A stretch of 64,000 nt of DNA from Candidatus Magasanikbacteria bacterium GW2011_GWC2_37_14 (lineage in GTDB: Bacteria; Patescibacteriota; Patescibacteriia; Magasanikbacterales; UBA922), in assembly GCA_000990355.1 (NCBI GenBank), contig LBSX01000001.1:3392-67391 (forward strand), written 5' to 3'. Positions 8,427 through 62,987 of the stretch are shown here, in pieces. The stretch's first letter is position 1. Each line of letters opens with the position of its first letter. Under the pieces are notes generated by a model. The model saw nothing but the letters and a program-made list of their open reading frames with translations. It was not told the DNA's origin and ran no database searches. Position numbers and translations under genes: made by a program.

Positions 8427-9698
8427 TTAATCCACGCGTTCAATATTGGCACCTAATAATTTTAAACGACTAACTAAATCTTCGTATCCACGTTCAATAA
8501 AATGAATATTGTTAATCTCAGTAGTATTGTCGGCAATCAAAGCGGCTAACACTAAAGATACACCCGCTCGAATATCGGTCGCTGTTACTTTGGCGCCACT
8601 AAATTTTATTTCACCTTTAATATTAGCTACTCGCTCGTCAACCACAATTTCGGCCCCCATACGATCTAATTCTGGTACTAACATAAAACGATTAGAAAAA
8701 ATTGTTTCATTTACTTCACTTGCTCCGGCAATTAAACTAAGAAGCACCATCATTTGCGGTTGCAAATCTGTGGGAAAACCAGGATGAACAGCTGTCTCTA
8801 TTTTTGTATTTTTTAATTCATTAATATTGCCTCTAACAGACAACAAATTTTCTTCTTGTGTAAATTTTACACCCATCTCTTCCAATTTAGCAATAAATCC
8901 AGGTAAATCTGACAAATTAACATTTTTTATTTTTACCTTCCCGCCAGTAATAAGAGACATAATAATATAAGTGCCAGCTTCTATTCTATCGGGCATAATT
9001 TCATATTCACAAGCCTGTAATTCTTTTACACCAATAATAATTATTTTATCACTACCTAAACCTTCAATTTTGGCCCCCATTTTAATTAAAAAATTTCCCA
9101 AGTCAACTATTTCTGGTTCTTTGGCTGCATTATTTATAATCGTCTGTCCACTAGCAAGGACTGCTGCCATCATAACATTTTCGGTAGCACCTACACTTGG
9201 AATTTTTAACTTAGTAACTTCTACATCTACTTCCGCACCAGTTAAGTTGTTACCATCCAAATTTACAAAACCATGCTCAGTGTTAACTTGCACGCCCATT
9301 TTTTCAAACGCTCGCAAATGTTGGTCTACAGCTCTAGCACCAAGCGCACAACCACCAGGCATAGCGACTTTGGCTCTTTTCTCTTTACCAATAAGAGGTC
9401 CGGTAATAGTAAAAGAAGCGCGCATTTCACTCACTAATTCATATGGCGCTTCTACCGAAGTAAGGCCATTATTAATTATTTTATAAGTATCATTATTTAA
9501 TTTTTCAACTTTTAAACCTAAATATTCCAAAAGTTTTACCATTGTAGAAACATCACTCAAATTTGGGACATTGTTTAAAATAAATTCACCCTTGGCTAAA
9601 ATTGTGGCACACATAATCGGCAATACCGCGTTTTTCGCTCCTTTTACACTAATTTCTCCAGCTAATTCTGCCCCGCCTTTAATTATAAATTTTGCCAT
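8427..9698 (-). CDS. murA: UDP-N-acetylglucosamine 1-carboxyvinyltransferase
   Basis: 423 aa, MAKFIIKGGAELAGEISVKGAKNAVLPIMCATILA...; MurA fold motifs. Confidence 0.9.
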   Translation of the reverse strand: MAKFIIKGGAELAGEISVKGAKNAVLPIMCATILAKGEFILNNVPNLSDVSTMVKLLEYLGLKVEKLNNDTYKIINNGLTSVEAPYELVSEMRASFTITGPLIGKEKRAKVAMPGGCALGARAVDQHLRAFEKMGVQVNTEHGFVNLDGNNLTGAEVDVEVTKLKIPSVGATENVMMAAVLASGQTIINNAAKEPEIVDLGNFLIKMGAKIEGLGSDKIIIIGVKELQACEYEIMPDRIEAGTYIIMSLITGGKVKIKNVNLSDLPGFIAKLEEMGVKFTQEENLLSVRGNINELKNTKIETAVHPGFPTDLQPQMMVLLSLIAGASEVNETIFSNRFMLVPELDRMGAEIVVDERVANIKGEIKFSGAKVTATDIRAGVSLVLAALIADNTTEINNIHFIERGYEDLVSRLKLLGANIERVD

Positions 9699-9763
9699 AA
9701 AAACTTGCTTTTATTAATAAAATACGCTATTATTCTATCGTAAAACTAGAGAAATAGCAAATT

Positions 9764-11783: not shown

Positions 11784-11812
11784 TTGACAAAAGCAAGAAA
11801 ATGTGCTATAAT
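11784..11812 (+). promoter_or_regulatory. Consensus sigma70 promoter: TTGACA-17 bp-TGcTATAAT
   Basis: TTGACA at 11784-11789, exactly 17 bp spacer, extended -10 TGCTATAAT ending at 11812. It points into GC-rich island 1. Confidence 0.6.
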
Positions 11813-11918
11813 ATTACGTTATTGCTAGAGTGGCGAATTTGGCTTAGTTAAGCTATTTTCATCCCAAGCAATATAGAGTGAACCTTACAATTTAGTTGAG
11901 TTTACAGTGTCATCAAGC

Positions 11919-11981: not shown

Positions 11982-12123
11982 GCCAAACAAACGCACCAAA
12001 GGGTGTCTAAATTCTTATCTTTGTACAGGTAAGAACCTAGATGCCCTTTGGTCGAGGGGGCTTCATTCGCTCGGAAATCCCGAGCACGAAAATTTCGACC
12101 ACGAACCACCATGGGAGAGACAG

Positions 12124-12867
12124 ATGACGAAGGGATACCAGTACCCCTACCGCACGAAATTGTGGGACCCGATGAGCGTGCGCCTGATCGAAGTGCCAAC
12201 CGACGCGGTCGGCTGCGTCATTCGCGGCCGCCACGCCGAGCCGGTGCGCGTGGGCCCGGACCACGCGCGCTCCCTGACGCCCGATGGCATCGCCATGGCC
12301 ATGACGGTTCAGATCCAGTACAGGGCGCTCATCGGCTTCCTGGGGAAGCACTTCGCCGAGCCGGCCTACTGGGCGTCGAACGCGGTGCGCTCAATCGTGA
12401 GCACGGCCCTGGCCACCGGGGCCGAGGTGGTGGAGCAGGACTCCCTGCTCAACTTGACGATCTCTATCGCCAAGGCGCCTGACCCCGAGGGCTGCCACGC
12501 CAACTTCCACGAGCACTGCGTGGCCAAGGGCATCAAGCTGGGCGAGATGTTCCGCTGGGTCACGGAAGATCCGGCGCGCTTCGGCGACCAGCCCGTGGAA
12601 GAGGCGCTCGCCAAGTGCAACGCCTTCAACACCAAGCTGATCGCGACCAGCGGCAACGAGGGACGATTCAAGGTCACTTTCGACCACGAACCGGCCAACT
12701 CGCTGTGGGCGAGGAGGAACGGCGTCTCGTTGGACGATCTAGGCCTGGACGTGCTCCAGGCCTACATCATCTTCCTGGGTGGACCGCACGGACACGTCCT
12801 CAGTGTCCAGAAGTTCTACCCGGACACCACCGCGACCCTGCCGGTCGTCTCCGCCACCTCGCGCTGA
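12124..12867 (+). CDS. hypothetical protein encoded by a ~64% GC island (possible horizontally acquired cargo)
   Basis: 247 aa from the ATG at 12124, with GGGAGAG RBS-like sequence 5 nt upstream; MTKGYQYPYRTKLWDPMSVRLIEVPTD.... An upstream 28-codon ORF (12041-12127) ends in a TGA that overlaps this ATG. The track ORF begins further upstream at a TTG, and an ATG at 11977 is an alternative start. Confidence 0.5.
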   Translation: MTKGYQYPYRTKLWDPMSVRLIEVPTDAVGCVIRGRHAEPVRVGPDHARSLTPDGIAMAMTVQIQYRALIGFLGKHFAEPAYWASNAVRSIVSTALATGAEVVEQDSLLNLTISIAKAPDPEGCHANFHEHCVAKGIKLGEMFRWVTEDPARFGDQPVEEALAKCNAFNTKLIATSGNEGRFKVTFDHEPANSLWARRNGVSLDDLGLDVLQAYIIFLGGPHGHVLSVQKFYPDTTATLPVVSATSR

Positions 12868-13030
12868 TTCCCACCGCCACCTCTCACCTCTCTCGCCCCC
12901 TGCCACGTCGTCGTCAGACTTTACGTGGTCTCACGGGCACAACTCAACATCAAGGTTCGCTCTCAACCCCCGTGGTTCACACCCGGGGGAAGAGACTAAT
13001 TCAATCATTTATAAATGATTGAATTACTTC

Positions 13031-30637: not shown

Positions 30638-32356
30638 TTATTTCTCCAAATCACTCCACATACTCTCATCATCTTCTTTTGGTTTGTCGCTAGCAAAAAA
30701 TGGTTGATTCGTATTCGGCACAGAAACTGCTCCACCAGAAGCTTTCTTTTTATGACGCTTACGTTTTTTCTTTTTAAAAGGTTCACTAGTTAAATTAGTC
30801 TGAGTATTTGTTACAACAACATTATTTATGATTGGCTTATTAAAAACTGGAGATTCTGCTATTTTTATTGGTTCTTCCTTGGGTAATAACTTTGATAAAG
30901 ACAATGTTTCTTCTGGTTCACTAACAGGCACTGCTAATTTTTTAATTAATTCACTAGGAGAAATTTTTGATTCATCTACCACTACCACTGGCTCTTTATG
31001 CTCCAATTCTAATTCTTCACCATCTTCATTTTCCTCTACTTCCATACCACTCCAACGTAAAATCTTTTCTTCAATAACTTCGCGCGGTTTACCATAACGT
31101 TCACGAGAAACTCTAACTATTTTTTCGGCACTATCAGTTGGCTGGCCGATTGGTGGCATGGTAATGGCAGAAAAGGGTTGCGAAGCCACACCATCAATCA
31201 TTAATTTCATAATGATGTGAAATTTAGGCAAATTTAAAATTTCTTCTGGCAAATAGGTTGGCATGTATTCTTTTTCAAAATATTCTGCATCTGGTCCACC
31301 AATTCTAAAAGTAATCATGGTACCGACGTTACCAAAAACAGCATCCGACACCAGTTCGTCTAATTGGGCTACATATTGATGTGCCATAATTAAACTTAAA
31401 CGATATTTACGAGCTTCGGACAAAATATTGGCAAAACTTGGTGTAGCAAAATTTTGAAATTCGTCTACATACAAAAAGAAATCCTGACGTTCTGCTTCTG
31501 GAGTGTCTACTCGTTCCATAGCCGAAAGCTGGATTTTGGTAATAAGCATTCCACCCAAAAGACGTGAATTATCTTCGCCAATTCTACCTTTTGAAAGATT
31601 GATAATAAAAATTTTCTTTTCATCCATTATTTTACGAACATCTATGGTAGATTTGACCTGAGCTACCATATTGCGAATAACACTGGCCGATAAAAACTGG
31701 CCGATTTTATTTTGTACAGCGGCCACAGCTTCGGTAGCATATTTTTCACTATAACTGGCAAATTCCTGTTCCCAAAAAGATTTAATTACTGGGTCTTTAA
31801 CTGATTTAACTACTCTTGCTCGATACTTTTTATCGGACAACATGCGATTGATACCCAGCAATGTAGAACCCGGATGTTCTAAAAGCGCCAAAATAGTATT
31901 GTTTAAAATGTACTCCATGCGAGGACTCCAAACATCGGGCCAAATCTTTTTAAAAGCTGCCATAAGACCAGCAGCTACCAAGTGCTTTTGTTCTTCAAAT
32001 TGGACTTCTAGAATATTGAAACCAATTGGATAGTTAGTATCAGCAGGATTAAAATAAATTACATCATTAATCCGATTGGCAGGAATATAATTAATAATTT
32101 TTTCGGCAAAATCTCCGTGAGGATCCACTACGCCCACACCATGACCAGCATAAATATCATGAAGCACCATATTTTCCATCATCGTAGTTTTGCCCATGCC
32201 TGTTTTACCAATTACATACATGTGACGCCGGCGGTCATCTAGTTTAATACCAAAACGACGCAATTGGTTGCGATAGGCAGTTTGAGCAAAAAAACAAATA
32301 TCTTCTTTTTCCTTTGGGACAACTACACCCTTGGTTGTAAGATGTTGAAGAGGCAC
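30638..32356 (-). CDS. VirD4/TraG/TrwB-like (FtsK-HerA superfamily) P-loop ATPase with K-rich disordered C-terminal tail
   Basis: Walker A at VIGKTGMGKTTMM, Walker-B-like FFLYVDEFQNF. C-terminal ~120 aa are acidic then lysine-rich (KKKKRKRHKKK). The track start is a GTG. It sits 76 bp upstream, in transcription order, of the 11-gene array. Confidence 0.5.
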   Translation of the reverse strand: MPLQHLTTKGVVVPKEKEDICFFAQTAYRNQLRRFGIKLDDRRRHMYVIGKTGMGKTTMMENMVLHDIYAGHGVGVVDPHGDFAEKIINYIPANRINDVIYFNPADTNYPIGFNILEVQFEEQKHLVAAGLMAAFKKIWPDVWSPRMEYILNNTILALLEHPGSTLLGINRMLSDKKYRARVVKSVKDPVIKSFWEQEFASYSEKYATEAVAAVQNKIGQFLSASVIRNMVAQVKSTIDVRKIMDEKKIFIINLSKGRIGEDNSRLLGGMLITKIQLSAMERVDTPEAERQDFFLYVDEFQNFATPSFANILSEARKYRLSLIMAHQYVAQLDELVSDAVFGNVGTMITFRIGGPDAEYFEKEYMPTYLPEEILNLPKFHIIMKLMIDGVASQPFSAITMPPIGQPTDSAEKIVRVSRERYGKPREVIEEKILRWSGMEVEENEDGEELELEHKEPVVVVDESKISPSELIKKLAVPVSEPEETLSLSKLLPKEEPIKIAESPVFNKPIINNVVVTNTQTNLTSEPFKKKKRKRHKKKASGGAVSVPNTNQPFFASDKPKEDDESMWSDLEK

Positions 32357-40295: not shown

Positions 40296-41219
40296 TTAGC
40301 GACTGCGACGATCAAATCTAAACCATTCTACCAAGAGTGGCGAAGCCACAAAAATTGAAGAATAAGCACCTAAGAAAATACCTACAAGCAAAGCTAGAGT
40401 AAAGTTTTTAATAGTTTCACCACCAATAAAATATAATACTGCCAATGTAAGTAAAGTGGTTAAAGTAGTATTAATTGAACGAGCAAAAGTTTGATTTATA
40501 GCTACATTTACAGTATCAGGAAAATTTTCCGCACTATGACGAATTAAATTTTCACGAATACGGTCAAAAACTACAATCGTATCATTTACTGAATAACCCA
40601 AAATTGTTAACAAGGCCACTACAAATGGTATGTCCACTTCTATACCGGCAAAATGACCCAAAAAAGCAAAAACACCAGCGGTAATTGTAACGTCATGAAA
40701 TAAAGCTACAACAGCTACTAATCCATACTTCCATGAAGCTACTGGACGAGAAACTTTTCTAAATGAATAAGCAATATACAAAATAATACCCACAACTACT
40801 ACAAACAATGCATAAAGTGAACGAGACTTTAATTCTTTACTTACTGCAGGACCAATAGTTTCAAAACGTACTTCTAAGACTTTGTTATTATCTTTTTCAA
40901 AATCAGTGCGTATTTTATTTAATACTTTGGTATGATCAGCATCACTTAAAAATGGCATTTTTACAATTAACCCTTTTTCATTGGTTTCTTGTACAGAAAT
41001 ACTACCCAAAGACAAACTTTCAATACTAGCTTTAACTTCGGTAACTACTGGTACATTTTCTGTAAAACGTGTTTCTAACAATGAGCCACCTTTGAAATCA
41101 TTACCAGTTTTTAAGCCAAAAACCAAAAGAGCAACCACACTTACCACAAACAAGGCTCCGGACAAAGCCAAATTAATATAACGATGTTTAATAATATTTA
41201 CCATATAATTATTGATCAA
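40296..41219 (-). CDS. secF: protein translocase subunit SecF
   Basis: 307 aa; 6-TM SecF topology and motifs. Overlaps secD by 11 nt. Confidence 0.85.
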   Translation of the reverse strand: MINNYMVNIIKHRYINLALSGALFVVSVVALLVFGLKTGNDFKGGSLLETRFTENVPVVTEVKASIESLSLGSISVQETNEKGLIVKMPFLSDADHTKVLNKIRTDFEKDNNKVLEVRFETIGPAVSKELKSRSLYALFVVVVGIILYIAYSFRKVSRPVASWKYGLVAVVALFHDVTITAGVFAFLGHFAGIEVDIPFVVALLTILGYSVNDTIVVFDRIRENLIRHSAENFPDTVNVAINQTFARSINTTLTTLLTLAVLYFIGGETIKNFTLALLVGIFLGAYSSIFVASPLLVEWFRFDRRSR

Positions 41220-43254
41220 TTTTCTTAGAGCCTAAAAATAAACGATTACCAAATTCACCAAACCAAGGAATAATAAAACGCACCAAAGTTCGAGAAACAG
41301 TAATAGCTGTAAACATGCTTGTTAACACGCCAATAGTCAAGGTAACCGCGAAACCTTGGACAAAACTAGATCCAAACCAAATTAAAATTACACAGGTAAT
41401 AAGTGTAGAAATGTTACTATCACGTATAGAAGGCCAGGCGCGTAAAAATCCTTCTTCGGCTGCTGCTTTTAGACTCTTACCGCTACGCAATTCTTCTTTC
41501 ATGCGTTCAAAAATTAAAACATTTGCATCTACCGCCATACCAATAGACATAATAAAACCAGCAATACCAGACAATGTAAGTGTGGCCCCAATTAATTTGG
41601 TTACTGCCAAAACAAGCATGGCATATAATGATAAAGCAAAAACTGACAAAAGCCCTGGCAAACGATAATAAATAATCATGAAAATTGCTACCAAAATTAT
41701 ACCAACTAAACCAGCTTTTAAACTTTTGTCTAAGGATTCACTGCCTAAACTAGCACCAATAGTTTGTTGGGAAATTAATTCTACTGGTACAGGCAAAGCC
41801 CCAGCATTAAGTCGTTGGGATAACAATTTAGCTTCTTGTAAATCAAAAGCACCAGTAATCACTGCTTGACCATCGCGAATTGGAGTGTTTACAGTAGGCA
41901 CAGAAATTGCCACACCATCCAAAAATATTGCTACTGGTTTACCAACATTACGTTCGGTAACATCTTTAAACAATTCTTTGCCTTCGTCATTAAATTGTAA
42001 GGACACTTGAACCTCTCCAGTATTTTGATCAGTAACAACTTCGGAACGTTTTAATTGTTTACCCGAAAGACCGGTGCTTTTCCATTGATCTTGTGGAGGA
42101 ATAATATCGACCTCGGTCTTAGTTTTAATTAACACACGATAAAGTTCATATTCCTTACTTTGACGTTCATTAACTTTGTAAATTACATGATAACCAAATT
42201 CTGTTTCTACTGGTCCAATAATTTCACCTACTTTGGCTTTAAAAACAGCTTCACCAAATGCCGGAACCATTACCTCTTTGGTAAAATAACCCAAATCACC
42301 ACCAATAACTTTGGAACCAGGATCACTAGAATTTTGTTTAGCTAAATCAGCAAAATTTTGAGCATTAGCTTGGTTATACAATTCTTGTGCTTTTTTAAAA
42401 GCCTCTTCTTTACTATATATTGGATTTTCACAATTTTTGGCTCCTAAATAACAAATTAAAATATGGCTAGCTTGTACTTCGGTTACCCCATTTTGTTCTT
42501 TACCTCTTTTTAAAACATTATAGCCAACCAAAGATTCAATTGGCTCTTTGCTAATGGTATTTTCTAAATTTTTACTAGCCCATTCATATAAAGCACTATC
42601 AGGATTATTTTTTGCTACAAAACCCAAATAGCCACCATTATTTTTACTAGTTGTATCTTCGGAATAATCAGTAACCACTTTTGCAAAATCTGTGCCAGCT
42701 TTAATCTTGTTCAAAGCTTCGGTAGCTTTAACTTTAGCATTTTTGTTATAAGTTTCTAACTCCTTTTTTTCTTCGGCAGTTAAAGTACGAGCTGGTTCAT
42801 TATTTTGTTCTTTAAACTCCAAAATTGGTGTACCACCAATCATTTGAATAGCTTTTTTAACATCATTAATACCTGGTAATTCCACCATTACTCGATAATT
42901 TTCACCCACTTTGGTAGTTTGCACAACTGGTTCTGATACTCCCAAGCCATTTACCCGACGTTCAATTACATCACGTACACCTTCTACAGCTGTAGATCTT
43001 TCGGCCTGAGCAATATTTGCCACATCGGCTTGGTACAACAAATGAGCACCACCTTGTAAATCCAAGCCTAAATTAAAACCTTTTTCCGGAACTTTTGGCA
43101 AACCCAGGGCAGTTTTGGTATTTACCCAATTTACACCTTTATTAAAATAGGCGGGAAAGTCAAAAACACCACTTATAAAAAAGAGAGCAATAATTCCCAC
43201 TATACCCCAACGAATTTTAGCTCGTAGGTTTGTTTTGTTTTGTTTAATAACCAT
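41209..43254 (-). CDS. secD: protein translocase subunit SecD with an embedded parvulin (PpiC-type) PPIase domain
   Basis: 681 aa. SecD N-terminal TM plus periplasmic domain and a C-terminal 6-TM bundle. Inside the periplasmic region (aa ~253-358, nt ~42180-42500) is GVTEVQASHILICYLGAKN...GGDLGYFTKEVMVPAFGEAVF...GPVETEFGYHVIYKV, the PpiC/parvulin rotamase signature. Confidence 0.8.
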   Translation of the reverse strand: MVIKQNKTNLRAKIRWGIVGIIALFFISGVFDFPAYFNKGVNWVNTKTALGLPKVPEKGFNLGLDLQGGAHLLYQADVANIAQAERSTAVEGVRDVIERRVNGLGVSEPVVQTTKVGENYRVMVELPGINDVKKAIQMIGGTPILEFKEQNNEPARTLTAEEKKELETYNKNAKVKATEALNKIKAGTDFAKVVTDYSEDTTSKNNGGYLGFVAKNNPDSALYEWASKNLENTISKEPIESLVGYNVLKRGKEQNGVTEVQASHILICYLGAKNCENPIYSKEEAFKKAQELYNQANAQNFADLAKQNSSDPGSKVIGGDLGYFTKEVMVPAFGEAVFKAKVGEIIGPVETEFGYHVIYKVNERQSKEYELYRVLIKTKTEVDIIPPQDQWKSTGLSGKQLKRSEVVTDQNTGEVQVSLQFNDEGKELFKDVTERNVGKPVAIFLDGVAISVPTVNTPIRDGQAVITGAFDLQEAKLLSQRLNAGALPVPVELISQQTIGASLGSESLDKSLKAGLVGIILVAIFMIIYYRLPGLLSVFALSLYAMLVLAVTKLIGATLTLSGIAGFIMSIGMAVDANVLIFERMKEELRSGKSLKAAAEEGFLRAWPSIRDSNISTLITCVILIWFGSSFVQGFAVTLTIGVLTSMFTAITVSRTLVRFIIPWFGEFGNRLFLGSKKIDQ

Positions 43255-44324: not shown

Positions 44325-44385
44325 ATTCCTTAAGTTTAATAATTAAGATATTTATTATAGCATCTAACTGTGTAGATTACAAAAA

Positions 44386-44560
44386 ACAAAAAACCGCCTT
44401 TTCTCCTTGCTCAAATTATTATTTTTAATAAGCTGAATAGGGTGGCGGTTTTTGTCACCCATTTTTGCTTGGGTGCGCCCGGAAGTGGGCGAAGGTGCGA
44501 GAGGTGGGCGCTGCTAAACAGCGAAAGGCGACGACGAATCCAGGAAGGTGCGGAAGGTAG
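44386..44560. repeat. GC-rich ~170-bp repeat, copy A (inverted relative to copy B at 49095-49268)
   Basis: The reverse complement of 49150-49266 matches 44386-44500 almost exactly (ggtggcggtttttgtcacccatttttgcttgggtgcgcccggaagtgggcg, plus the hairpin aaaaaccgcc...ggcggttttt). Similarity then decays over the next ~70 bp. Confidence 0.75.
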
Positions 44561-49136: not shown

Positions 49137-49268
49137 TCAGCCCAGCCTCGCTCCTTCCCCCGCCCACTTCCGGGCACACCCAAGCAAAAATGGGTGACAA
49201 AAAACCGCCACCCTGCTCAGTTTATTAAATCTAATAATTTGAACAAGGAGAAGAGGCGGTTTTTTGTT
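49095..49268. repeat. GC-rich ~170-bp repeat, copy B; ends in the hairpin aaaaaaccgcc..(45 nt)..ggcggtttttt
   Basis: See copy A. The terminal inverted repeat plus T-tract looks like a terminator for the 48940-promoted transcript. Confidence 0.75.
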
Positions 49269-49380
49269 TGTTTCCCTCCCCTACAAGGGGAGGGTTAGCC
49301 TGCCTGCCGGTAGGCAGGGGTGGGGTCTGGCAAACAGCGAAACCTCCTCCTCGCCTCCCCCTTATAGGGGGAGGAAAATT
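49264..49380. repeat. Cluster of three GC hairpins (ccctcccctacaaggggaggg; cctgcctgccggtaggcagg; cctcccccttatagggggagg) downstream of hpf
   Basis: Perfect palindromes directly readable. Likely terminator(s) for hpf on the minus strand. Confidence 0.65.
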
Positions 49381-50716: not shown

Positions 50717-52663
50717 ATGTTGAACTTAACAGACAACCCAACTATCTACGTAACCCGCGATATTGAACGCGCACTCGGAATTCCGGTTAACACCAAGGGT
50801 TATTTTATTATCTCAAATTATTCCGACTTTGCCAAGAGTTATAAAAAAAATAGAAATATACTTTTGATTAAAGCAAAGCCCCGTACCGACCGAGGGTCTG
50901 GTACTGGGGAAAAAGAACAATTAGATACATGGGAGTTGTTGCAAAATAAAAAAGTAAAAAAGTTTATTGGCACACTGTCATCCCGAGCACACCCCGCAAA
51001 TGCGGGGGAAGCCGAGGGATCCCTTAAACAAAGTAAAAGGGATTCCTCCACGGGAGCCTGCCCCGAGCGGACTAGCCGAGGGGGTCGGAATGACACACAC
51101 GCCAAAATCCTAGTTTTTAAAAACACTCTACAAATAGAAAAAACCTGTGCCGAAAACGGTTGGGAATTATTAAATCCACCAGCAAAAATTTCCAATGCAG
51201 TAGAAGAAAAAATTTCGCAAATTACTTGGCTTGGACCATTAAAAAAATATTTACCCAAATACCAAGTTTTAAAATGCAAAGATATTGATCTAGAAAAAGA
51301 ATCGCAGAGGAATTATTTTTCCGAAGTGAGGACCAAGCAGAGCGAACCCGCAACGAGGGAAAATAATTCCTCGAAATTCTTTAAACCATTTATCTTACAA
51401 TTTAATCGTTCACATACTGGTAACGGAACATTTTTAATTACTAATGAACAACAATTAGTGGAATTGCAACAAAAATTTCCTGAACGAGAAGTACGAATTG
51501 CCGAATATATTCCCGGTCCGCTTTTTACCAACAATAATGTGGTAACCAAAAATGCTATTTTGCTTGGCAACCTAAATTATCAAATCACTGGTCTTAAACC
51601 TTTTACAGATTTATCTCTTTCTACCATTGGTAATGATTGGGCTCTGCCACACAAAATTTTGAACAAAAAACAAATTGCCGAGTACAATAAAATTGCCAAT
51701 GAGGTTGGTTTACGCTTGCAAAAAGCAGGATGGTGCGGACTTTTTGGGATTGATGTAGTACAAAACGAACATACTAAAAAATTATACTTACTAGAAATTA
51801 ATTGTCGACAGCCCGCAAGTACGACTTATGAATCACAGTTGCAACTCTCTGTCATCCCGAGCGAAGTAAAACGAAGTCGAGGGATCCCTTACACAACAAC
51901 CAAGGGATTCCTCCACTCGTCGCGAGACTCGGTCGGAATGACAGATGAGGTTACTACTTTTGAAGCACATTTACTTTCGTTAACAAATTTTGATTTAAAA
52001 AACAAAAAATTAATAAAAATAAATAATGGTGCACAAATAATTCAACGCGTTACGCAACACACGCCGGTAATTAATATTCCGAAAATTACCAAAAAACAAT
52101 TCTTTAATTACTTTGTTTACAACAACAGCAAAGACAATGCCGACTTGCTTCGTTTACAAACCACTGTTGGCATAATGAAAGAACACAACATATTAAATGA
52201 TTATGGAAGAATTCTGCAATACTTTGTAATTGGCGCGAAAGATGGCAAACCCTGGTGTGCTGACCGAGCGGCGGGAATAATTATTAAGGACAATAAAATC
52301 TTAGTAATAAAAAGGAATAAATATGGTGAAGAATTTTATATTTTTCCCGGAGGAACTGTGGAAAAAGGAGAAAAACTAAAAGAAACAGCAATTAGAGAAA
52401 TAAAAGAAGAAACCAATTTAACCTGTACTCTACAAAAAACAAAGCCACTATTTTACGAAGATAAAATTGATGGCAAAAAAATCTATCACTATTTTATCGA
52501 TAAATGTACTGGAACTGCTAAAATCAAAAGCAATTCCGAAGAATTTATCCGTAACAAAGAAGGCAATACTTATGAATTGGTCTGGATTGATTTGTTAGAA
52601 TTAAAAAATATTGAATTACACCCAATTGAAATTAAAAAAGAATTATTAAAAAAATATGTCTAG
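50717..52663 (+). CDS. ATP-grasp-domain protein fused to a C-terminal NUDIX hydrolase domain; carries two in-frame palindromic-element insertions
   Basis: Central ATP-grasp motifs (..EVRIAEYIPG.., GWCGLFGIDVVQNEHTKKLYLLEINCRQ). C-terminal Nudix box GGTVEKGEKLKETAIREIKEETNL. The start is chosen at the internal Met (MLNLTDNP); the track start at 50678 abuts murB. Confidence 0.6.
   Translation: MLNLTDNPTIYVTRDIERALGIPVNTKGYFIISNYSDFAKSYKKNRNILLIKAKPRTDRGSGTGEKEQLDTWELLQNKKVKKFIGTLSSRAHPANAGEAEGSLKQSKRDSSTGACPERTSRGGRNDTHAKILVFKNTLQIEKTCAENGWELLNPPAKISNAVEEKISQITWLGPLKKYLPKYQVLKCKDIDLEKESQRNYFSEVRTKQSEPATRENNSSKFFKPFILQFNRSHTGNGTFLITNEQQLVELQQKFPEREVRIAEYIPGPLFTNNNVVTKNAILLGNLNYQITGLKPFTDLSLSTIGNDWALPHKILNKKQIAEYNKIANEVGLRLQKAGWCGLFGIDVVQNEHTKKLYLLEINCRQPASTTYESQLQLSVIPSEVKRSRGIPYTTTKGFLHSSRDSVGMTDEVTTFEAHLLSLTNFDLKNKKLIKINNGAQIIQRVTQHTPVINIPKITKKQFFNYFVYNNSKDNADLLRLQTTVGIMKEHNILNDYGRILQYFVIGAKDGKPWCADRAAGIIIKDNKILVIKRNKYGEEFYIFPGGTVEKGEKLKETAIREIKEETNLTCTLQKTKPLFYEDKIDGKKIYHYFIDKCTGTAKIKSNSEEFIRNKEGNTYELVWIDLLELKNIELHPIEIKKELLKKYV
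50987..51094. repeat. Bipartite palindromic element (GTCATCCCGAGC..GAGGGATCCC / GGGATTCCTCC..GGTCGGAATGAC) in-frame in the ATP-grasp/NUDIX gene
   Basis: Encodes ..SSRAHPANAGEAEGSLKQSKRDSSTGACPERTSRGGRNDTH.. . The core ccccgcaaatgcgggg recurs at 20527-20541. Confidence 0.8.
51851..51942. repeat. Bipartite palindromic element, second in-frame copy in the same gene
   Basis: GTCATCCCGAGCGAAG..CGAGGGATCCC / GGGATTCCTCCACTCGTCGCGAGACTCGGTCGGAATGAC, encoding ..SVIPSEVKRSRGIPYTTTKGFLHSSRDSVGMTDE.. Confidence 0.8.
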
Positions 52664-53390
52664 TTTGTCTACTCAAGCTCTGGAAGTTATTCAAAATTAT
52701 CTTCACCTCCCCTTTCCTGGGCATAATATTTCTTGCCCTTATTTTAACAACCGCCGGGCCCGACTTCGTGGAGGTTTGCGGGCATTAATTGGCAAAGGTA
52801 GTCCCGCAGATATTGTGGAAGAAGCAACCATAATTTCCTTGCGTGAAAAAATTAATTTAAACAAAATAACTGACGAAGAATTAAAAAAGTTTTTAATTGA
52901 TAAAAAAATTGGCATTGATTGTTCGGGCTTGGTTTACCACATTCTTGATGCCGAAATGAAAGCACAAGGCAAAGGATCTTTACAAAAAATTCTTAAACGT
53001 CCGTGGTTTAAAAATCCCATTAGAAAATTATTAGTAAAATTACGACCAATTGAAAATACTGGTGTGGGAACTTTTAATCATGAAATAAACAGCATGGAAA
53101 TAAATTTAAAAGACCTTGCTCCAGGTGATTTGATTATTATTATGGGTGCTGGGGTAAAACAGGATTATAACCACATATTACTCATAAATCAGATAGCAGA
53201 TAACAAAATTCAATATACTCACTCGTTTCAGTATCCAAATGATGGCCTTTATAATCATGGTGTACGACAAGAAACAATCACTATTACCGATCCTAACAAA
53301 TCTTTGTTAGACCAAACCTGGTCCGAACCGCAAATGCAGGATTACGCGAAAAAAGCCAAGGAATGTAAAATTGCAAGACTTAGGACATAA
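52656..53390 (+). CDS. hypothetical protein with NlpC/P60-like Cys motif (IGIDCSGLVYHIL)
   Basis: 244 aa. A DCSGLV active-site-like motif and later His residues; weak call. Confidence 0.35.
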   Translation: MSSLSTQALEVIQNYLHLPFPGHNISCPYFNNRRARLRGGLRALIGKGSPADIVEEATIISLREKINLNKITDEELKKFLIDKKIGIDCSGLVYHILDAEMKAQGKGSLQKILKRPWFKNPIRKLLVKLRPIENTGVGTFNHEINSMEINLKDLAPGDLIIIMGAGVKQDYNHILLINQIADNKIQYTHSFQYPNDGLYNHGVRQETITITDPNKSLLDQTWSEPQMQDYAKKAKECKIARLRT

Positions 53391-53402
53391 GATTTATGAC
53401 AT

Positions 53403-53433
53403 AAAACCCTGTACCGTTCTGGTACAGGGTTTT
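53403..53433 (+). terminator. Rho-independent terminator
   Basis: aaaaccctgtacc-gttct-ggtacagggtttt: perfect 13-bp stem plus T-run. Confidence 0.7.
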
Positions 53434-53563
53434 AATATTTTCAAGACCCAATCTTAATTAACAAATAATTACTAATTAAGATTGCTGGGGCCTTGAACGA
53501 CCACCAGCCAGAGGCGGGTTGGTCGAGGGATAAGAAAGAACGGAGGGAAGGAACAGACGCTAT

Positions 53564-54157
53564 CTAGCCGCTGGTGGGCCAGAGGCGCTTGTTGGTGGCG
53601 ATGGCCATGTCGTAATTGGCGGTGATCTGGAAGACCTTGTGGGCCATGAGCTTCTGGAAATGCAATCTCATGGTGGCATGACCACCCACTTCCAAGAACA
53701 GGGTGTAGTCGGTCGGGTCGCAGAGGACAGTGACCGACTTGTGGTTCTTGGCCCCAGCGCGCAACATGGCGGGGCCACCGATGTCGATGTTCTCGACCAG
53801 TTCGTCGCGCGTGACGTCGGGGTTGGCCGCCACCAGCTCGAAAGGGTAGAGGTTCACGACAACCAGATCGATACCCTGGATGCCGTGCTTCTCCAGGAAG
53901 TTCAGGTGTACCCGGTTGTCGCGCTTGTAGAGGATGCCCGCATGGATCTGCGGGCAGAGGGTTTTTACCCTACCATCCAGACCCTCGGGGAAGCCCGTGA
54001 CCTCGGCCACGTCGGTGACCGCGATGTCCTGCTCACGCAGGAACTTGGCGGTACCGCCCGTACTGAGGATCTCCCAGCCGAAGTCCACCAAGGCCTTGGC
54101 CAGTTCCACTACACCGGTCTTGTCGAACACACTGATCAACGCTCGGGGCATGGGCAC
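53564..54157 (-). CDS. Stand-alone PurH N-terminal (MGS-like / IMP cyclohydrolase) domain protein, encoded on a ~62% GC island
   Basis: 197 aa; ALISVFDKTGVVELAKALVDFGWEILSTGGTAKFL...GRVKTLCPQIHAGIL...VVNLYPF...DIGGPAMLRAGAKNHKSVTV. This aligns motif by motif with the IMPCH domain of PurH, but the ~390-aa AICAR transformylase domain is absent. There is a perfect AGGAGGTG SD 5 nt upstream. Confidence 0.7.
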   Translation of the reverse strand: MPMPRALISVFDKTGVVELAKALVDFGWEILSTGGTAKFLREQDIAVTDVAEVTGFPEGLDGRVKTLCPQIHAGILYKRDNRVHLNFLEKHGIQGIDLVVVNLYPFELVAANPDVTRDELVENIDIGGPAMLRAGAKNHKSVTVLCDPTDYTLFLEVGGHATMRLHFQKLMAHKVFQITANYDMAIATNKRLWPTSG

Positions 54158-54288
54158 CTCCTGATTACTGGCTAAACCGGAAAGACGTTAATTTCAATTT
54201 AACACAAATAATGCAAATTAGCAAGAGTGTGATGTTTCGATACAAAAACTTGATTTTTTATTGATTTTTTGCTAAGCTATACGGGCTT

Positions 54289-55529: not shown

Positions 55530-56321
55530 ATGTATCTAAACTGGAACGCACTTACAATTGATGTATTTTCAGATAATAAAATCAACTCTCTTTACAACGA
55601 GGGTTATCTTTTTACCCGCACAGGCAAAGGTGATATGTACCAGACGCGAAGTATTCGCATTGATTTAAGTAAGTTTGAATTGAGTAGTGAAAATAAACGA
55701 GTGTTGAAAAAGACTGAGGACATAGGATTTAAAGTATATGATATTCCATACGAAAAATATGATTGGTCAATTGGCAAAATGGCCAAGGATTTTTATGAAA
55801 CAAGGTTTGGTAGAGGAACGCCTGCACTGAACCGAGCCAAAGGCTCTGGTTTAGTGTTTTCGGCAAATAAAATAAAAGAATTATTAACAACTAAACATAA
55901 TTTTAATAAGTTATTTGTTTACAGTCTGTCATTGCGAGAAGCCCCCGAGGGCGACGAAGCAATCCCCAGTAAGAATGGGATTGCCACGCCCTCCACTTCG
56001 TTACGGGCTCGCAATGACAGTGTCGGCTACGTAATCTGTCACGAAACAAACGAACTACTTCACTACTCTTACCCATTTTATAACTTAGATCTTAAATCCT
56101 ATGTCTTAAGTCCTAACACGGGCATGGGTATGATGCTCCAAGCAATTATCTACGCTCAAAAACAAGGCAAAAAATATGTTTATCTAGGTTCTGCCAAAGA
56201 CGCCAAAGCGAAATACAAATTACAATTTGCAGGACTAGAATGGTTTGATGGAAAAACTTGGCAAACAGATTTGGAAGAATTGAAACAGCAAATTATGCAA
56301 AATAAGCAACAAGCAGATTAA
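55530..56321 (+). CDS. aminoacyl-tRNA-dependent transferase-like protein (ATE/Bpt C-terminal motif; FemXAB-like peptidoglycan branch transferase also possible)
   Basis: C-terminal YVYLGSAKDAKAKYKLQFAGLEWFDG resembles the ATE_C/Bpt YLGY..KM.YK..F.P.E motif. It lies between mraY and murC. Contains an in-frame palindromic element. Confidence 0.35.
   Translation: MYLNWNALTIDVFSDNKINSLYNEGYLFTRTGKGDMYQTRSIRIDLSKFELSSENKRVLKKTEDIGFKVYDIPYEKYDWSIGKMAKDFYETRFGRGTPALNRAKGSGLVFSANKIKELLTTKHNFNKLFVYSLSLREAPEGDEAIPSKNGIATPSTSLRARNDSVGYVICHETNELLHYSYPFYNLDLKSYVLSPNTGMGMMLQAIIYAQKQGKKYVYLGSAKDAKAKYKLQFAGLEWFDGKTWQTDLEELKQQIMQNKQQAD
55928..56018. repeat. Bipartite palindromic element (GTCATTGCGAG..GCAATCCCC / GGGATTGCC..CTCGCAATGAC), in-frame
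   Basis: Encodes ..SLREAPEGDEAIPSKNGIATPSTSLRARNDS.. Confidence 0.8.
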
Positions 56322-56328
56322 GTATTTT

Positions 56329-56706
56329 ATGACAGTAATAAAAACTTTTAAAGAATTACTAGTCTGGCAAAAATCACATCAGCTAACTTTAATAATTTAT
56401 AAAATAACCAATGATTATCCAAAATACGAAATATTTGCTTTAACAAGTCAAACAAGACGAGCTTCCTCCTCAATACCTGCAAACATAGTTGAAGGTTTTA
56501 GAAGACAAAGTCTAAAAGATAGCATAAACTTTTACAATACTGCTGATGCTTCTCTAGAAGAATTAAAATATCATTTACTACTAGCAAAAGACTTAAATTA
56601 TATTAGTATTGAACGATATAACTACGTTCTTGAAAAAGCAGAAGAAGTTGGCAAATTACTTACTGGATGGTTACAAAGTCAAAGAAAATTTTTAAATACT
56701 AAATAA
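56329..56706 (+). CDS. four-helix-bundle protein (23S rRNA intervening-sequence protein family)
   Basis: 125 aa; ELLVWQKSHQLTLIIYKIT..FPKYEIFALTSQTRRASSSIPANIVEGFRRQS matches the family signature. Confidence 0.7.
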   Translation: MTVIKTFKELLVWQKSHQLTLIIYKITNDYPKYEIFALTSQTRRASSSIPANIVEGFRRQSLKDSINFYNTADASLEELKYHLLLAKDLNYISIERYNYVLEKAEEVGKLLTGWLQSQRKFLNTK

Positions 56707-59539: not shown

Positions 59540-60523
59540 ATGAAAACTATTCAACAGTCCTACCCCGAACTAGCACAAGCACTTGACACAACTGAGGTAT
59601 ATTTAAAACGCGAAGACCAACACAAATATGGCTCACACAAAGGACGTTCAATTCCCTTAATGATCAAAAAATATTCTAAAGAAGGACCACACACTGCCAC
59701 GATTGGTGGGCCATTTTCTGATTTTGTAATTTCTTCTTCGGGAAATGCCGCTTTGGCAGCCATTCATGCTATTCAAGCTCATAATCGCAATAACGATAAT
59801 AAACTCACTTTAAAAATTTTTATCGGAGAAAATATTAATGCGGAAAAATTAAAATTATTAATTAATTTAATTGAAGATCCTAACATCACTTTAACTCAGG
59901 TAGAAAATCCCAAACAAACTGCTTTTTTGGTAGATAAGGAAGGACAAGCAAAAAATCTTCGCCAATCAACCGATGAATTGGCTTTGGAAGGTTACACAGA
60001 ACTTGCTGAAGAATTAAATAAAATTCCCAATTTACAAGCAGTATTTATTCCTACTTCAAGTGGCACTACAGCCGAAGGTTTGGGTTTGGCTTTTGCTAAA
60101 CTTAATTACCAAGCACAAATCCACATTGTACAAACCACTGCTTGTCATCCGATAGTGGATGTCATTGCGAGGACTCCGCACACTACGGAGGACGAAGCAA
60201 TCCCAGTGGATATTGATGAAACAAAGGGATTGCCACGCCCCGCTCGAGCGGGGCTCGCAATGACAGCCACTTCACTCGCCGATGCAATTGTCGACCAAGT
60301 TGGTCACAGAAAAGAAAAAGTTACAGATATAATTAAAAATTCCAAAGGCGCTGGCTGGATTGGCACGGACGATGAAATTTTGAATGCAATTGAACTACTA
60401 AAAAATACTTGTAAAATAAAAATTTCTCCAAATTCAGCATTAGCAATTGTCGGATTAAAAAAAGCCATTGCTAATGGCTTTAAATTCTCTGGACCAGTGG
60501 TTTGTTTAATTACGGGGCAATAA
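59540..60523 (+). CDS. PLP-dependent enzyme of the tryptophan-synthase-beta fold (TrpB-like LKREDQHKYGSHK motif) with an in-frame palindromic insert
   Basis: VYLKREDQHKYGSHKGRS resembles the TrpB PLP-lysine motif LKREDLNHTGSHK. Glycine-rich loop later. Start taken at MKTIQQSYPELAQ. Confidence 0.55.
   Translation: MKTIQQSYPELAQALDTTEVYLKREDQHKYGSHKGRSIPLMIKKYSKEGPHTATIGGPFSDFVISSSGNAALAAIHAIQAHNRNNDNKLTLKIFIGENINAEKLKLLINLIEDPNITLTQVENPKQTAFLVDKEGQAKNLRQSTDELALEGYTELAEELNKIPNLQAVFIPTSSGTTAEGLGLAFAKLNYQAQIHIVQTTACHPIVDVIARTPHTTEDEAIPVDIDETKGLPRPARAGLAMTATSLADAIVDQVGHRKEKVTDIIKNSKGAGWIGTDDEILNAIELLKNTCKIKISPNSALAIVGLKKAIANGFKFSGPVVCLITGQ
60161..60264. repeat. Bipartite palindromic element (GTCATTGCGAGGACTCCGC..GCAATCCC / GGGATTGCCACGCCCCGCTCGAGCGGGGCTCGCAATGAC), in-frame
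   Basis: Encodes ..VIARTPHTTEDEAIPVDIDETKGLPRPARAGLAMTAT.. . A partial GTCATCC half-site lies just upstream at 60144. Confidence 0.8.
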
Positions 60524-61214: not shown

Positions 61215-62987
61215 ATGGAAGGACTAGAAGAAATTTTACTAAAAATTATCCTGCAAAACCCCGCAAATGGCGAGGTGTTTTATAATTTACTCCGTAAAGA
61301 AACCAATAAATTAAAAACTTCTATTCCTCCCAAACGCGAGTTGATTATAGCTTATCAAAAATTAATAAAAAATAAAAGGGCTGTACCCAACAAGCATTTT
61401 GAATTTTTGCTACGCAAAGCGCAAATTCGCACTCTTTCGGGGGTAGCAGTTATTACTTCCCTAGTTAAACCCTATAATTGCCCGGGAAACTGCGTATATT
61501 GCCCTAGCGAGGCCAGAATGCCCAAAAGTTATCTTGCAAGCGAACCAGCCGCTGCCCGCGCTCTAGGGCTTAAATTTAACCCCTATGAGCAAATGCGCCA
61601 GAGGATCTTGATGCTGGAACAAAATGGCCATCCAACCGACAAAATTGAGTATATTATCAAAGGTGGTTCTTGGAATGCCTATCCATTAAAATATCAGTAT
61701 TGGTTTATTTTGGAATCGTTTAGAGCGTGTAACGAATTGTCATCGCGAACCCTACGAAGTAAAGGGTGTGGCGATCCCAAGGATTCACAAAAAAAGACTG
61801 GGATTGCTTCATCTCGCTCGAGCGAGACTCGCAATGACAGCTTGGAACAATTACGCCAGCAATTAAAAATCGAACAACGAAAAAACGAAACTTCCAAACA
61901 CCGAATTATTGGCTTAACTTTGGAAACACGACCTGACTGTGTAACACCAACCACCATTGTCCACATGCGAGAACAAGGTTGCACCAGAATTGAGCTTGGA
62001 CTACAAGCACCAGATGATAAAATTTTAAAATTAGTTGATCGCGGACACACAGTACAACAATTTAAAGATGCAATGCTGCTGCTCCGTCAAGCTGGTTTTA
62101 AAGTTGATCTACATTTTATGCCCGACTTACCCGGCACCACTGCCAAGCATGATGTAGAAATGTATAAATTATTATTTTCTGACCCGGGCCTTAAACCAGA
62201 CATGGTAAAAATTTATCCCTGTACAGTAATTAAATCTGCTCCACTTTATAAATGGTACAAAGCTGGTAAATACAAACCCTATTCTGAGCATAAACTTTTT
62301 GAAGCTTTAATTGCCATGAAATTAGCTACTCCACGCTATTGTCGTATTTCACGACTAATTCGTGATATTCCAGAAAATGAAATAAGTGGTGGAAATATTA
62401 TTACCAATTTGCGACAACATTTGGCAACAGAAATGAAAAATCGAGGATTAAAATGCCAGTGTCTTCGTTGTCGAGAAATAGGACATCAACAAGACTTAAG
62501 ACTTAAGACTGAAGACTTAAGACTATTTACAGACAAATATGAAACCACTGGTGGTACAGAATATTTCCTTTCTTATGAAGATAAAAATAGACAAGTGGTG
62601 TTTGCTTTTTTACGTCTTAGACTTCCCACTGTCATTGCGAGCCCTGCCCGAGCAGGGCGTGGCAATCCCAATGTTTTAAATACTTCCATGGGGATTGCTT
62701 CGTCGCCCTCGGGGGCTTCTCGCAATGACACCGCCTTTATCCGCGAACTCCATACTTATGGACAACTAATGACATTAAAACATGAACACATCAAAGCATT
62801 AAAACAAAAAAATGATGTACAACATACAGGTTTTGGGAAAAAGTTAGTATTAGAAGCCGAAAAAATTGCCAAGAAAAATCATTATCAAAAACTCTCAATT
62901 ATTTCTGGAGTTGGAGTACGGGGATATTACCGCAAACTTGGTTATAAATTAGAAAAAACTTATATGACTAAAAAAATCTCCACATAG
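61215..62987 (+). CDS. elp3: Elp3-family radical-SAM/GNAT tRNA uridine(34) acetyltransferase homolog, with two in-frame palindromic inserts and a short tandem repeat
   Basis: Radical-SAM cysteine cluster ..YNCPGNCVYCP... The central ELP3 block ETRPD..GCTRIELG.Q is present. C-terminal GNAT (..QHTGFGKKLVLEAEKIAKK..). Start taken at MEGLEEIL. Confidence 0.7.
   Translation: MEGLEEILLKIILQNPANGEVFYNLLRKETNKLKTSIPPKRELIIAYQKLIKNKRAVPNKHFEFLLRKAQIRTLSGVAVITSLVKPYNCPGNCVYCPSEARMPKSYLASEPAAARALGLKFNPYEQMRQRILMLEQNGHPTDKIEYIIKGGSWNAYPLKYQYWFILESFRACNELSSRTLRSKGCGDPKDSQKKTGIASSRSSETRNDSLEQLRQQLKIEQRKNETSKHRIIGLTLETRPDCVTPTTIVHMREQGCTRIELGLQAPDDKILKLVDRGHTVQQFKDAMLLLRQAGFKVDLHFMPDLPGTTAKHDVEMYKLLFSDPGLKPDMVKIYPCTVIKSAPLYKWYKAGKYKPYSEHKLFEALIAMKLATPRYCRISRLIRDIPENEISGGNIITNLRQHLATEMKNRGLKCQCLRCREIGHQQDLRLKTEDLRLFTDKYETTGGTEYFLSYEDKNRQVVFAFLRLRLPTVIASPARAGRGNPNVLNTSMGIASSPSGASRNDTAFIRELHTYGQLMTLKHEHIKALKQKNDVQHTGFGKKLVLEAEKIAKKNHYQKLSIISGVGVRGYYRKLGYKLEKTYMTKKIST
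61800..61838. repeat. Half-copy of palindromic element (GGGATTGCTTCATCTCGCTCGAGCGAGACTCGCAATGAC), in-frame in elp3
   Basis: Encodes ..TGIASSRSSETRNDS.. Confidence 0.75.
62631..62739. repeat. Bipartite palindromic element (GTCATTGCGAGCCCTGCCCGAGCAGGGCGTGGCAATCCC / GGGATTGCTTCGTCGCCCTCGGGGGCTTCTCGCAATGAC), in-frame in elp3
   Basis: Encodes ..TVIASPARAGRGNPNVLNTSMGIASSPSGASRNDTAF.. . The tandem repeat gacttaagacttaagactgaagacttaagact at 62494-62526 is also in-frame (DLRLKTEDLRL). Confidence 0.8.

Follow-up and report, generated by a model that had tools for sequence, protein, structure and literature searches.

We analyzed a 64,000-nucleotide (nt) stretch of contig LBSX01000001.1 from Candidatus Magasanikbacteria bacterium GW2011_GWC2_37_14 (hereafter, the window). 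This organism belongs to the candidate phyla radiation (CPR; Patescibacteria). The window is AT-rich: the GC content is 0.25-0.43 in most 500-nt intervals. Two sharp GC-rich blocks interrupt it, at positions 12001-13000 (0.63) and 53501-54000 (0.60). At 60-nt resolution, the second block extends from about 53480 to 54190. It carries, on the minus strand, a gene for a stand-alone inosine monophosphate (IMP) cyclohydrolase, which we call purJ and which is the subject of this report. The GC content of purJ is 61% (GC1/2/3, the values at the three codon positions, are 0.60/0.37/0.84). In contrast, the open reading frames (ORFs) in the window have a median GC3 of 0.257, with values above 0.4 in just three of them. 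Thus, a first-pass annotation of the window, which had claimed a GC-rich ORF in a compositionally foreign island of a reduced-genome lineage, was right on these points (GC3 of 0.84 versus 0.26, in a host from the CPR Magasanikbacteria). The reading frame can begin at an ATG at 54151, which gives 195 amino acids (aa), or at an in-frame GTG at 54157, two codons upstream, which gives 197 aa. The longer product comes from a program-made list of ORFs in which the GTG start was taken.

The purJ product was compared with protein family profiles. In Pfam, it matches MGS (1.1e-22) and the first 55 positions of AICARFT_IMPCHas. The match to the PurH equivalogs of NCBIfam (TIGR00355 and NF002049) is restricted to profile positions of about 2-191 of 510. 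The scores (236 and 252 bits) fall below the cut-offs for full-length bifunctional PurH (528 and 402 bits) because the transformylase half is missing. In the PDB, chains of PurH/ATIC are matched along their N-terminal ~188 residues, with values of 1e-40 to 1e-50. The motifs DKTG, STGGTA, GRVKTL, NLYPF, DIGGP and AKNH are all present. Therefore, the alignment with the N-terminal IMP cyclohydrolase (IMPCH) domain of PurH, which had been noticed from the sequence, is confirmed by Pfam, NCBIfam and the PDB. This domain is the N-terminal part of PurH and cyclizes formylated 5-aminoimidazole-4-carboxamide ribonucleotide (FAICAR) to IMP. The N-domains of bifunctional PurH/ATIC (TIGR00355; PDB 1p4r, 4ehi, 3zzm and 9ou7) have the same active-site motifs; over ~185 residues, the window protein is 46-56% identical to bacterial PurH N-domains and 42% identical to an archaeal one. 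However, bifunctional PurH also possesses the formyltransferase domain for the non-formylated substrate (AICAR), which the window protein does not.

The active site was inspected in an alignment of 129 sequences, namely the window protein, its counterpart in a related locus (L002; ENA ERZ27250187, 1242 nt) and 127 relatives including human ATIC. All active-site columns that are at least 90% conserved are retained in both CPR proteins. In human numbering, the retained residues are S10, K14, S/T34, G35, G36, T37, R64, V65, K66, T67, Y104, D125, G127, G128, K137 and N138. From ATIC structures, we take K14, S/T34-G-G-T37, R64, T67, D125, K137 and N138 to belong to the active site or to the phosphate-binding site. 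Y104 and K66 are active-site residues (PMC9525906). The two CPR proteins share three substitutions of their own, H69C (KTLHP to KTLCP), T109V and L174M. Thus, the gene encodes a complete and intact IMP cyclohydrolase (MGS-like) domain of PurH, of the PurJ/PurH2 type.

The unfused PurJ class and its precedents

Homologues were searched for among 5.8 billion proteins, and the best 120 matches were listed. In this list, 103 proteins are 190-209 aa in length, and the names, where given, are 'IMP cyclohydrolase' of Desulfobacteraceae or Deltaproteobacteria. The PurJ class has a length of about 195-205 aa. The nearest relatives (60% identity) sit in purJ-purD-purE-sua5 clusters and are therefore genuine purine-pathway genes. 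Cruz et al. described 50 bacterial purJ genes, 44 of which occur together with an unfused purV, and the taxa with purJ are Desulfobacterales, Desulfovibrionales, Prevotellaceae, Fervidobacteriaceae and Thermodesulfobacteria (PMC6486802). In Archaeoglobus fulgidus, PurH2 (AF1811) occurs naturally as an unfused protein; Hunter et al. demonstrated its catalytic activity and its ability to rescue an E. coli auxotroph by complementation (PMC6797443). The window protein resembles PurJ/PurH2 proteins such as AF1811 in its MGS-like IMPCH domain, in its size (~190-205 aa for the class) and in its catalytic residues, and its best database matches are of this class. Thus, a lone IMPCH domain, which the first-pass annotation had considered unexpected, is not unprecedented, because the class has already been described (PMC6486802, PMC6797443). 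The kind of gene is known, and the finding is incremental unless the high GC content is actively maintained, a matter taken up below.

The window gene differs from known purJ genes in several respects. Known bacterial purJ genes are nearly always accompanied by purV and often lie beside purD or purN (PMC6486802), whereas the window purJ has no pur neighbor and no partner in 64 kb. Moreover, it resides in a reduced CPR host, has a foreign composition and is at most 60% identical to any member of the class outside the CPR pair.

Cyanophages offer another comparison. In the genomes of the Prochlorococcus phages P-SSM7 and P-SSM5, purH2 (PHROG 30501) is an IMPCH gene that stands alone, the other genes of the pathway being absent, and the PHROG 30501 profile matches the window protein over its full length (1.4e-50). 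In P-SSM7, a T4-like cyanophage, purH2 lies beside mazG, and there is no purH1. In the cyanophage case the host supplies FAICAR, whereas the CPR cell has no obvious supply of this kind. By analogy, the cyanophage gene may be regarded as a precedent for an isolated IMPCH gene, not as a donor. A phage vector is not supported: no viral contig in IMG/VR was matched, and the cyanophage purH2 is only ~45% identical. Most of the other 'phage' matches (46-56% identity) lie on fragmentary, unannotated records and look like host purH genes.

Insertion, origin and selection

The island was delimited with two related loci. L093 (ENA ERZ27249449) is 82-87% identical in nucleotide sequence to the window across secA, murB, an ATP-grasp/NUDIX gene, the 244-aa gene that converges on purJ, and mraY. 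In L093, the 244-aa gene and mraY are just 72 bp apart, and this spacer holds a simple terminator hairpin. The alignment ends at window position 53406 and resumes at 54244; between these points, the 837 bp of the window correspond to 12 bp in L093. Relative to L093, the 837-bp insertion disrupts a terminator hairpin of the L093 type. Thus, positions 53407-54243 are an insertion/deletion polymorphism among relatives, and the island is larger than the extent given in the first-pass annotation (53440-54180). The other locus, L002, is collinear with the window over its full length (74% nucleotide identity), in the order: end of the 244-aa gene, terminator, hairpin, purJ, promoter and start of mraY. 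Its purJ encodes 194 aa with 75% aa identity to the window protein and has a GC content of 0.61 and a GC3 of 0.85 between flanks of about 40% GC. The locus is therefore a clean and well-bounded case of gene gain or loss in CPR bacteria, because a filled site, an orthologous filled site and an empty site are all available. The history behind the polymorphism could be a gain in the ancestor of the window and L002 lineages, a loss in L093 or a lateral spread between Magasanikbacteria; a few hundred bases are common to the three loci, and they do not resolve the sister pair.

Candidate signals for expression lie on both sides of the gene. A strong Shine-Dalgarno sequence had been claimed, and AGGAGG is indeed found 5 nt before the ATG; both this sequence and the ATG are conserved in L002. 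The claim of a plausible promoter fared less well: a consensus scan for sigma-70-like promoters upstream of purJ found none with at least 9 of 12 matches, and the best candidate found by eye (TTGCTA-N17-TAAATT) has 8 of 12. The position of this candidate is kept in L002 as TTGTTA-N17-TAAGTT. Downstream, the block of the 3' untranslated region (3'UTR) at 53437-53505 on the minus strand, which includes the hairpin of about 25 bp, has only 3 differences between the window and L002; the coding sequences are 74% identical. The palindrome core of this hairpin is unique in the window. The terminator stem is also preserved in L002, where the loop differs and one base pair has changed in a compensatory way. 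A comparison of the island with Rfam gave no family at threshold, including ZTP and purine riboswitches and the group II intron, and three sub-threshold matches are look-alikes of a hairpin plus terminator. The conserved hairpin was also considered as an attC site of an integron and rejected by eye, because its polarity does not fit.

The substitutions between the window and L002 purJ genes give a dS (synonymous divergence) of 0.60, a dN (nonsynonymous divergence) of 0.19 and a dN/dS of 0.31. The catalytic core (residues 1-150) has a lower dN/dS of 0.19 (Fisher p = 5e-11). For the host genes compared between the window and L093, dS is 0.63-1.0 (1.45 in one faster gene) and dN/dS is about 0.07-0.16. 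Thus, purJ is under purifying selection and is less constrained than housekeeping genes, and its age in these lineages is comparable to their divergence. A 61-codon flank had suggested that synonymous sites of the island are far more conserved than those of the host. This idea was rejected because the flank is an outlier, and larger host genes have dS values like the 0.60 of the island.

The source of purJ was sought in several ways. In about 80 other genomes, the GC content of purH equals that of the genome, and therefore the mismatch observed here is unusual. The first-pass annotation had looked to a protein search for the donor lineage; however, apart from the CPR pair itself, the 5.8 billion proteins contain nothing above 60% identity, and no donor emerged. 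In a neighbor-joining (NJ) tree, the CPR pair branches deeply and by itself. It lies slightly nearer to unfused than to fused proteins, and the tree does not discriminate between a fused and an unfused ancestry. The nearest neighbor in the tree, P0024, lies in an ordinary context of 42% GC. Neither target-site duplications nor terminal inverted repeats were found at the ends of the insert, and none of the flanking genes was assigned to an integrase or transposase family.

Predicted role of PurJ and alternatives

We propose that the island carries a complete, expressed and functional IMP cyclohydrolase of the PurJ/PurH2 type. A Magasanikbacteria lineage would have received the gene in its unfused form, by horizontal transfer from a GC-rich source not yet sampled, and the insertion site would be the terminator region that separates an NlpC/P60-like gene from mraY. 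It would persist as an accessory gene, with two related lineages possessing it and a third lacking it. Its likely role would be the last step of a patchwork route from AICAR or FAICAR to IMP, for which a formyltransferase of the purV, purH1 or purP type may be encoded at another site of the genome or by a partner organism. We give this explanation as a whole a probability of about 0.6. We infer that PurJ cyclizes FAICAR to IMP, that the gene was gained here rather than lost in L093, and that it serves the cell in this way. CPR bacteria are believed to rely on partners for their nucleotides. An IMPCH that is kept by selection suggests that at least some Magasanikbacteria can complete the closure of the purine ring themselves. 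This bears on what such cells import (intermediates at the level of AICAR or FAICAR rather than finished purines) and on strategies for their cultivation.

Several observations weigh against this proposal. None of purV, purH1, purP, purD and purE is present in the 64-kb window, and no pur family was detected among the ~50 ORFs scanned. A tblastn search of the whole window also found no sequence like AICAR transformylase, PurD or PurE. The island neighborhood consists of the ATP-grasp/NUDIX gene, the NlpC/P60-like gene, mraY, an ATE-like gene, murC and murB; it is a region of cell-wall synthesis (murB, mraY, murC). With no pur gene in the window and a neighborhood of this kind, no source of FAICAR is evident in the window. 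To our knowledge, CPR bacteria generally do not possess de novo purine synthesis. The promoter match is weak. The histidine of KTLHP, which is conserved in 94% of the relatives, is a cysteine in both CPR copies, and for residues 151-195 dN/dS is 0.67, which is indistinguishable from neutrality. Because the 5.8 billion proteins include no donor nearer than 60% identity, a 'recent' transfer is not supported. We considered the neighboring ATP-grasp/NUDIX protein as a PurP-like FAICAR synthetase; this candidate was rejected, because there is only a weak match to ATPgrasp_ST and the gene is also present in L093, which lacks the island. No match was found with PADLOC that would suggest a role of the island in a defense system.

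The protein might instead be a repurposed enzyme of the MGS-like/IMPCH fold that, while retaining the residues for binding of the phosphate and the ring, acts on another nucleotide-like substrate and needs no partner from the purine pathway. ForH of formycin biosynthesis is the precedent: this protein of about 216 aa is likewise a stand-alone IMPCH homologue, of a different pathway, with a solved structure (PDB 6nko), and it is matched by the window protein at 3e-27. The lack of pur context in 64 kb, the substitutions H69C, T109V and L174M at 94%-conserved positions and the fast-evolving C-terminal tail are consistent with this idea. However, the window protein matches canonical PurH (175 bits, ~50-56% identity) far better than it matches ForH (99 bits), and all known substrate-contact residues are unchanged. 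Furthermore, ForH lies in a biosynthetic cluster for a C-nucleoside, whereas neither natural-product genes nor genes of another pathway lie beside the window purJ. We therefore consider repurposing unlikely.

It is also rather improbable that purJ is a functionless passenger, an acquired orphan on the way to loss, of which the empty site in L093 would be the outcome. Presence and absence among close relatives, a dN/dS (0.31) that is 3-4 times that of the neighboring housekeeping genes (~0.07-0.16), the lack of a pathway partner in view and a clade with only two members among the 5.8 billion proteins would all fit such a gene. However, both copies are intact after a dS of about 0.6, the core evolves at a dN/dS of 0.19 with every catalytic residue kept, and the Shine-Dalgarno sequence, the start codon and the 3'UTR block are conserved.

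The first-pass annotation had further suggested a truncated remnant of a transferred bifunctional purH, from which the AICAR transformylase half was deleted. PF01808, the family of the bifunctional enzyme, matches residues 134-186, and one tblastn alignment to a full-length PurH continues for 23 codons beyond the stop codon into the GC-rich 3'UTR. However, positions 2-55 of PF01808 correspond to the IMPCH domain and are found in all unfused PurJ proteins. The 23-codon run-on contains about 5 identities, is not obtained with three other PurH queries and is absent from L002; it was therefore rejected as a chance match. With tblastn, no AICARFT domain or remnant was found after the stop codon or anywhere in the window. 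The ORF stops at the normal domain boundary, its length and end point are those of the 195-205-aa PurJ class, and its best-scoring relatives are unfused. These results argue strongly against truncation, which we regard as very improbable, and they uphold the other part of that claim, namely a stand-alone IMPCH protein without a transformylase half.

A chimeric contig, in which GC-rich reads of another organism are joined to an AT-rich contig and which the first-pass annotation had named as a possible refutation, has nothing but the abrupt change of composition in its favor and can practically be discarded: a Logan contig (SRR3309152) is 100% identical over 2123 nt spanning the mraY junction, a 68-kb ENA MEGAHIT contig is 100% identical over 7122 nt spanning both junctions, ten contigs carry the adjacent mraY, and in L002, which comes from a different study, the GC-rich gene again lies between these neighbors at a syntenic, 74%-identical locus. 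Thus, judged from the assemblies, the junctions are real and the island is not a chimera.

The enzyme itself appears to have been missed by existing annotation. The proteins that flank the island are KKQ28205 and KKQ28207. On the identical ENA contig, the gene caller chose an antisense ORF of 171 aa instead of the IMPCH gene. The sense products of 195 and 197 aa are absent from the protein sets of NCBI, JGI and ENA, and the sense protein was found in Logan only. Metabolic reconstructions that use such antisense gene calls would miss the enzyme. Dual coding was considered and rejected: the antisense ORF is open in both orthologues, but this is expected at a GC3 of about 0.85, and the antisense ORF has no homologues. 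A 279-aa 'homologue' (P0003, from L003, ENA ERZ28654779 scaffold_75370) was not used, because its 1168-nt contig repeats a segment of ~570 nt twice and is probably an assembly artefact.

GC-rich island 1 and other features of the window

As shown in Table 1, the other GC-rich block of the window (island 1) contains an ORF of 247 aa without a Pfam match. Its AlphaFold model (predicted local distance difference test, pLDDT, 90.6) has a histidine-phosphatase fold, with matches to PGAM, SixA and PFKFB at E values of about 1e-6. The family is small, and its RH and HE motifs are conserved in all, or in at least 90%, of 67 representatives. The only close homologue is P0140 (41% identity), which is syntenic in a distant CPR relative, L094: DUF5674 lies upstream (the two proteins are 48% identical) and PEP-utilizer paralogues lie downstream. 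A metagenome scan for further orthologues gave only the organism already found.

The GC3 is 0.90 in island 1 and 0.88 in the L094 orthologue, whereas the host genes have a GC3 of 0.2-0.28 and 0.43-0.56, respectively. We compared third positions at the 96 codons with identical amino acids in island 1 and P0140. The counts are 32 C/C, 20 G/G, 24 C/G, 18 (G or C)/(A or T) and 2 (A or T)/(A or T). The synonymous sites are thus completely randomized with respect to C and G, whereas A and T continue to be avoided. These counts correspond to saturation under a stationary GC3 of about 0.89, and therefore the high GC content of island 1 would be an equilibrium and not a relic. Judged from these codons, the high GC content of island 1 appears to be maintained rather than recent. 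Thus, it should not be assumed that a GC-rich gene in this genome is a recent one.

The two islands share a layout: a GC-rich ORF, a pyrimidine-rich 3'UTR, a perfect AT-rich palindrome and an intrinsic terminator. It is conceivable, but doubtful, that GC-richness is actively maintained in these AT-rich CPR genomes, in purJ as well, and is not the fading mark of a transfer. For purJ, the hints are the GC3 of 0.84 and 0.85 in two lineages at a dS of 0.6 and the near-invariant 3'UTR hairpin. A rough calculation suggested that the GC-to-AT decay of purJ is below the neutral expectation; the two purJ sequences fit both a decay from a GC3 of about 0.94 and stationarity at 0.84. If the GC content is indeed maintained, purJ would be a long-term resident that takes part in a non-canonical step of purine salvage in an organism thought to lack the pathway. 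The high GC content could then be kept up by selection acting on the GC-rich mRNA or DNA, or by repair or recombination with a local GC bias. In addition, these genomes would contain a small class of 'protected' GC-rich genes with a common layout.

Table 1. Coordinates of the purJ island, island 1 and other features in the window.
Feature	Position	Strand	Remarks
Whole inserted segment, 837 bp	53407..54243	-	Promoter/5'UTR, purJ coding sequence, 3'UTR hairpins and terminator; delimited by the empty site in L093
purJ/purH2-type stand-alone IMP cyclohydrolase coding sequence	53564..54151	-	195 aa; stop codon TAG at 53564-53566
Shine-Dalgarno sequence AGGAGG	54157..54162	-	5 nt before the ATG; read from the sequence, kept in L002
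Candidate promoter TTGCTA-N17-TAAATT	54196..54224	-	Found by eye; weak, 8/12 match
Small GC-rich hairpin in the pyrimidine-rich 3'UTR	53498..53525	-	RNAalifold
Long 3'UTR hairpin, ~25 pairs	53440..53497	-	RNAalifold on window and L002; perfect AT-rich palindrome core at 53449-53484
Bidirectional intrinsic terminator	53402..53434	.	Terminator scan; shared with the convergent 244-aa gene
Convergent 244-aa gene	52656-53390	+	Shares the bidirectional terminator with purJ
Antisense ORF, 171 aa	53660-54175	+	Taken in place of the IMPCH gene by the gene caller on the ENA contig
Island 1 ORF, 247 aa	12124-12867	+	No Pfam match
Island 1 promoter	~11785-11813
Island 1 palindrome	12990-13019
Tandem array, 12 ORFs of 360-522 aa	14274-30561	-
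VirD4/TraG-type coupling protein	30638-32356	-
SecD	41209-43254	-
bAvd-like/23S rRNA intervening-sequence protein	56329-56706	+	1.2e-36
Short repeat copies	55925-55990, 60160-60265, 61791-61839, 62627-62730; also ~50970-51112, 51833-51951		A copy in L093 at 9650-9743
Second repeat, ~110 nt	44383-44500, 49162-49269

Near island 1, the window contains a tandem array of 12 ORFs. A mobile (phosphohistidine) domain of PEP-utilizing enzymes ends all four of the array ORFs that were scanned, and the same family flanks the island 1 homologue in L094. The position of this phosphohistidine-domain array beside a gene of the histidine-phosphatase fold suggests a functional link. A coupling protein of type IV secretion, of the VirD4/TraG type, adjoins the array.

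A family of short repeats (~50-105 nt) is embedded in protein-coding genes, with copies present in some relatives and absent from others. The ATP-grasp/NUDIX protein has 661 aa in the window and 584 aa in L093, and the 244-aa gene beside purJ has 270 aa in L093, where a repeat copy is inserted. A gene for a bAvd-like protein was also found in the window, with no reverse transcriptase seen nearby; it is followed by an ORF of 120 aa without a family. In SecD, two peptidyl-prolyl isomerase domains of the PPIC type are inserted in the periplasmic region.

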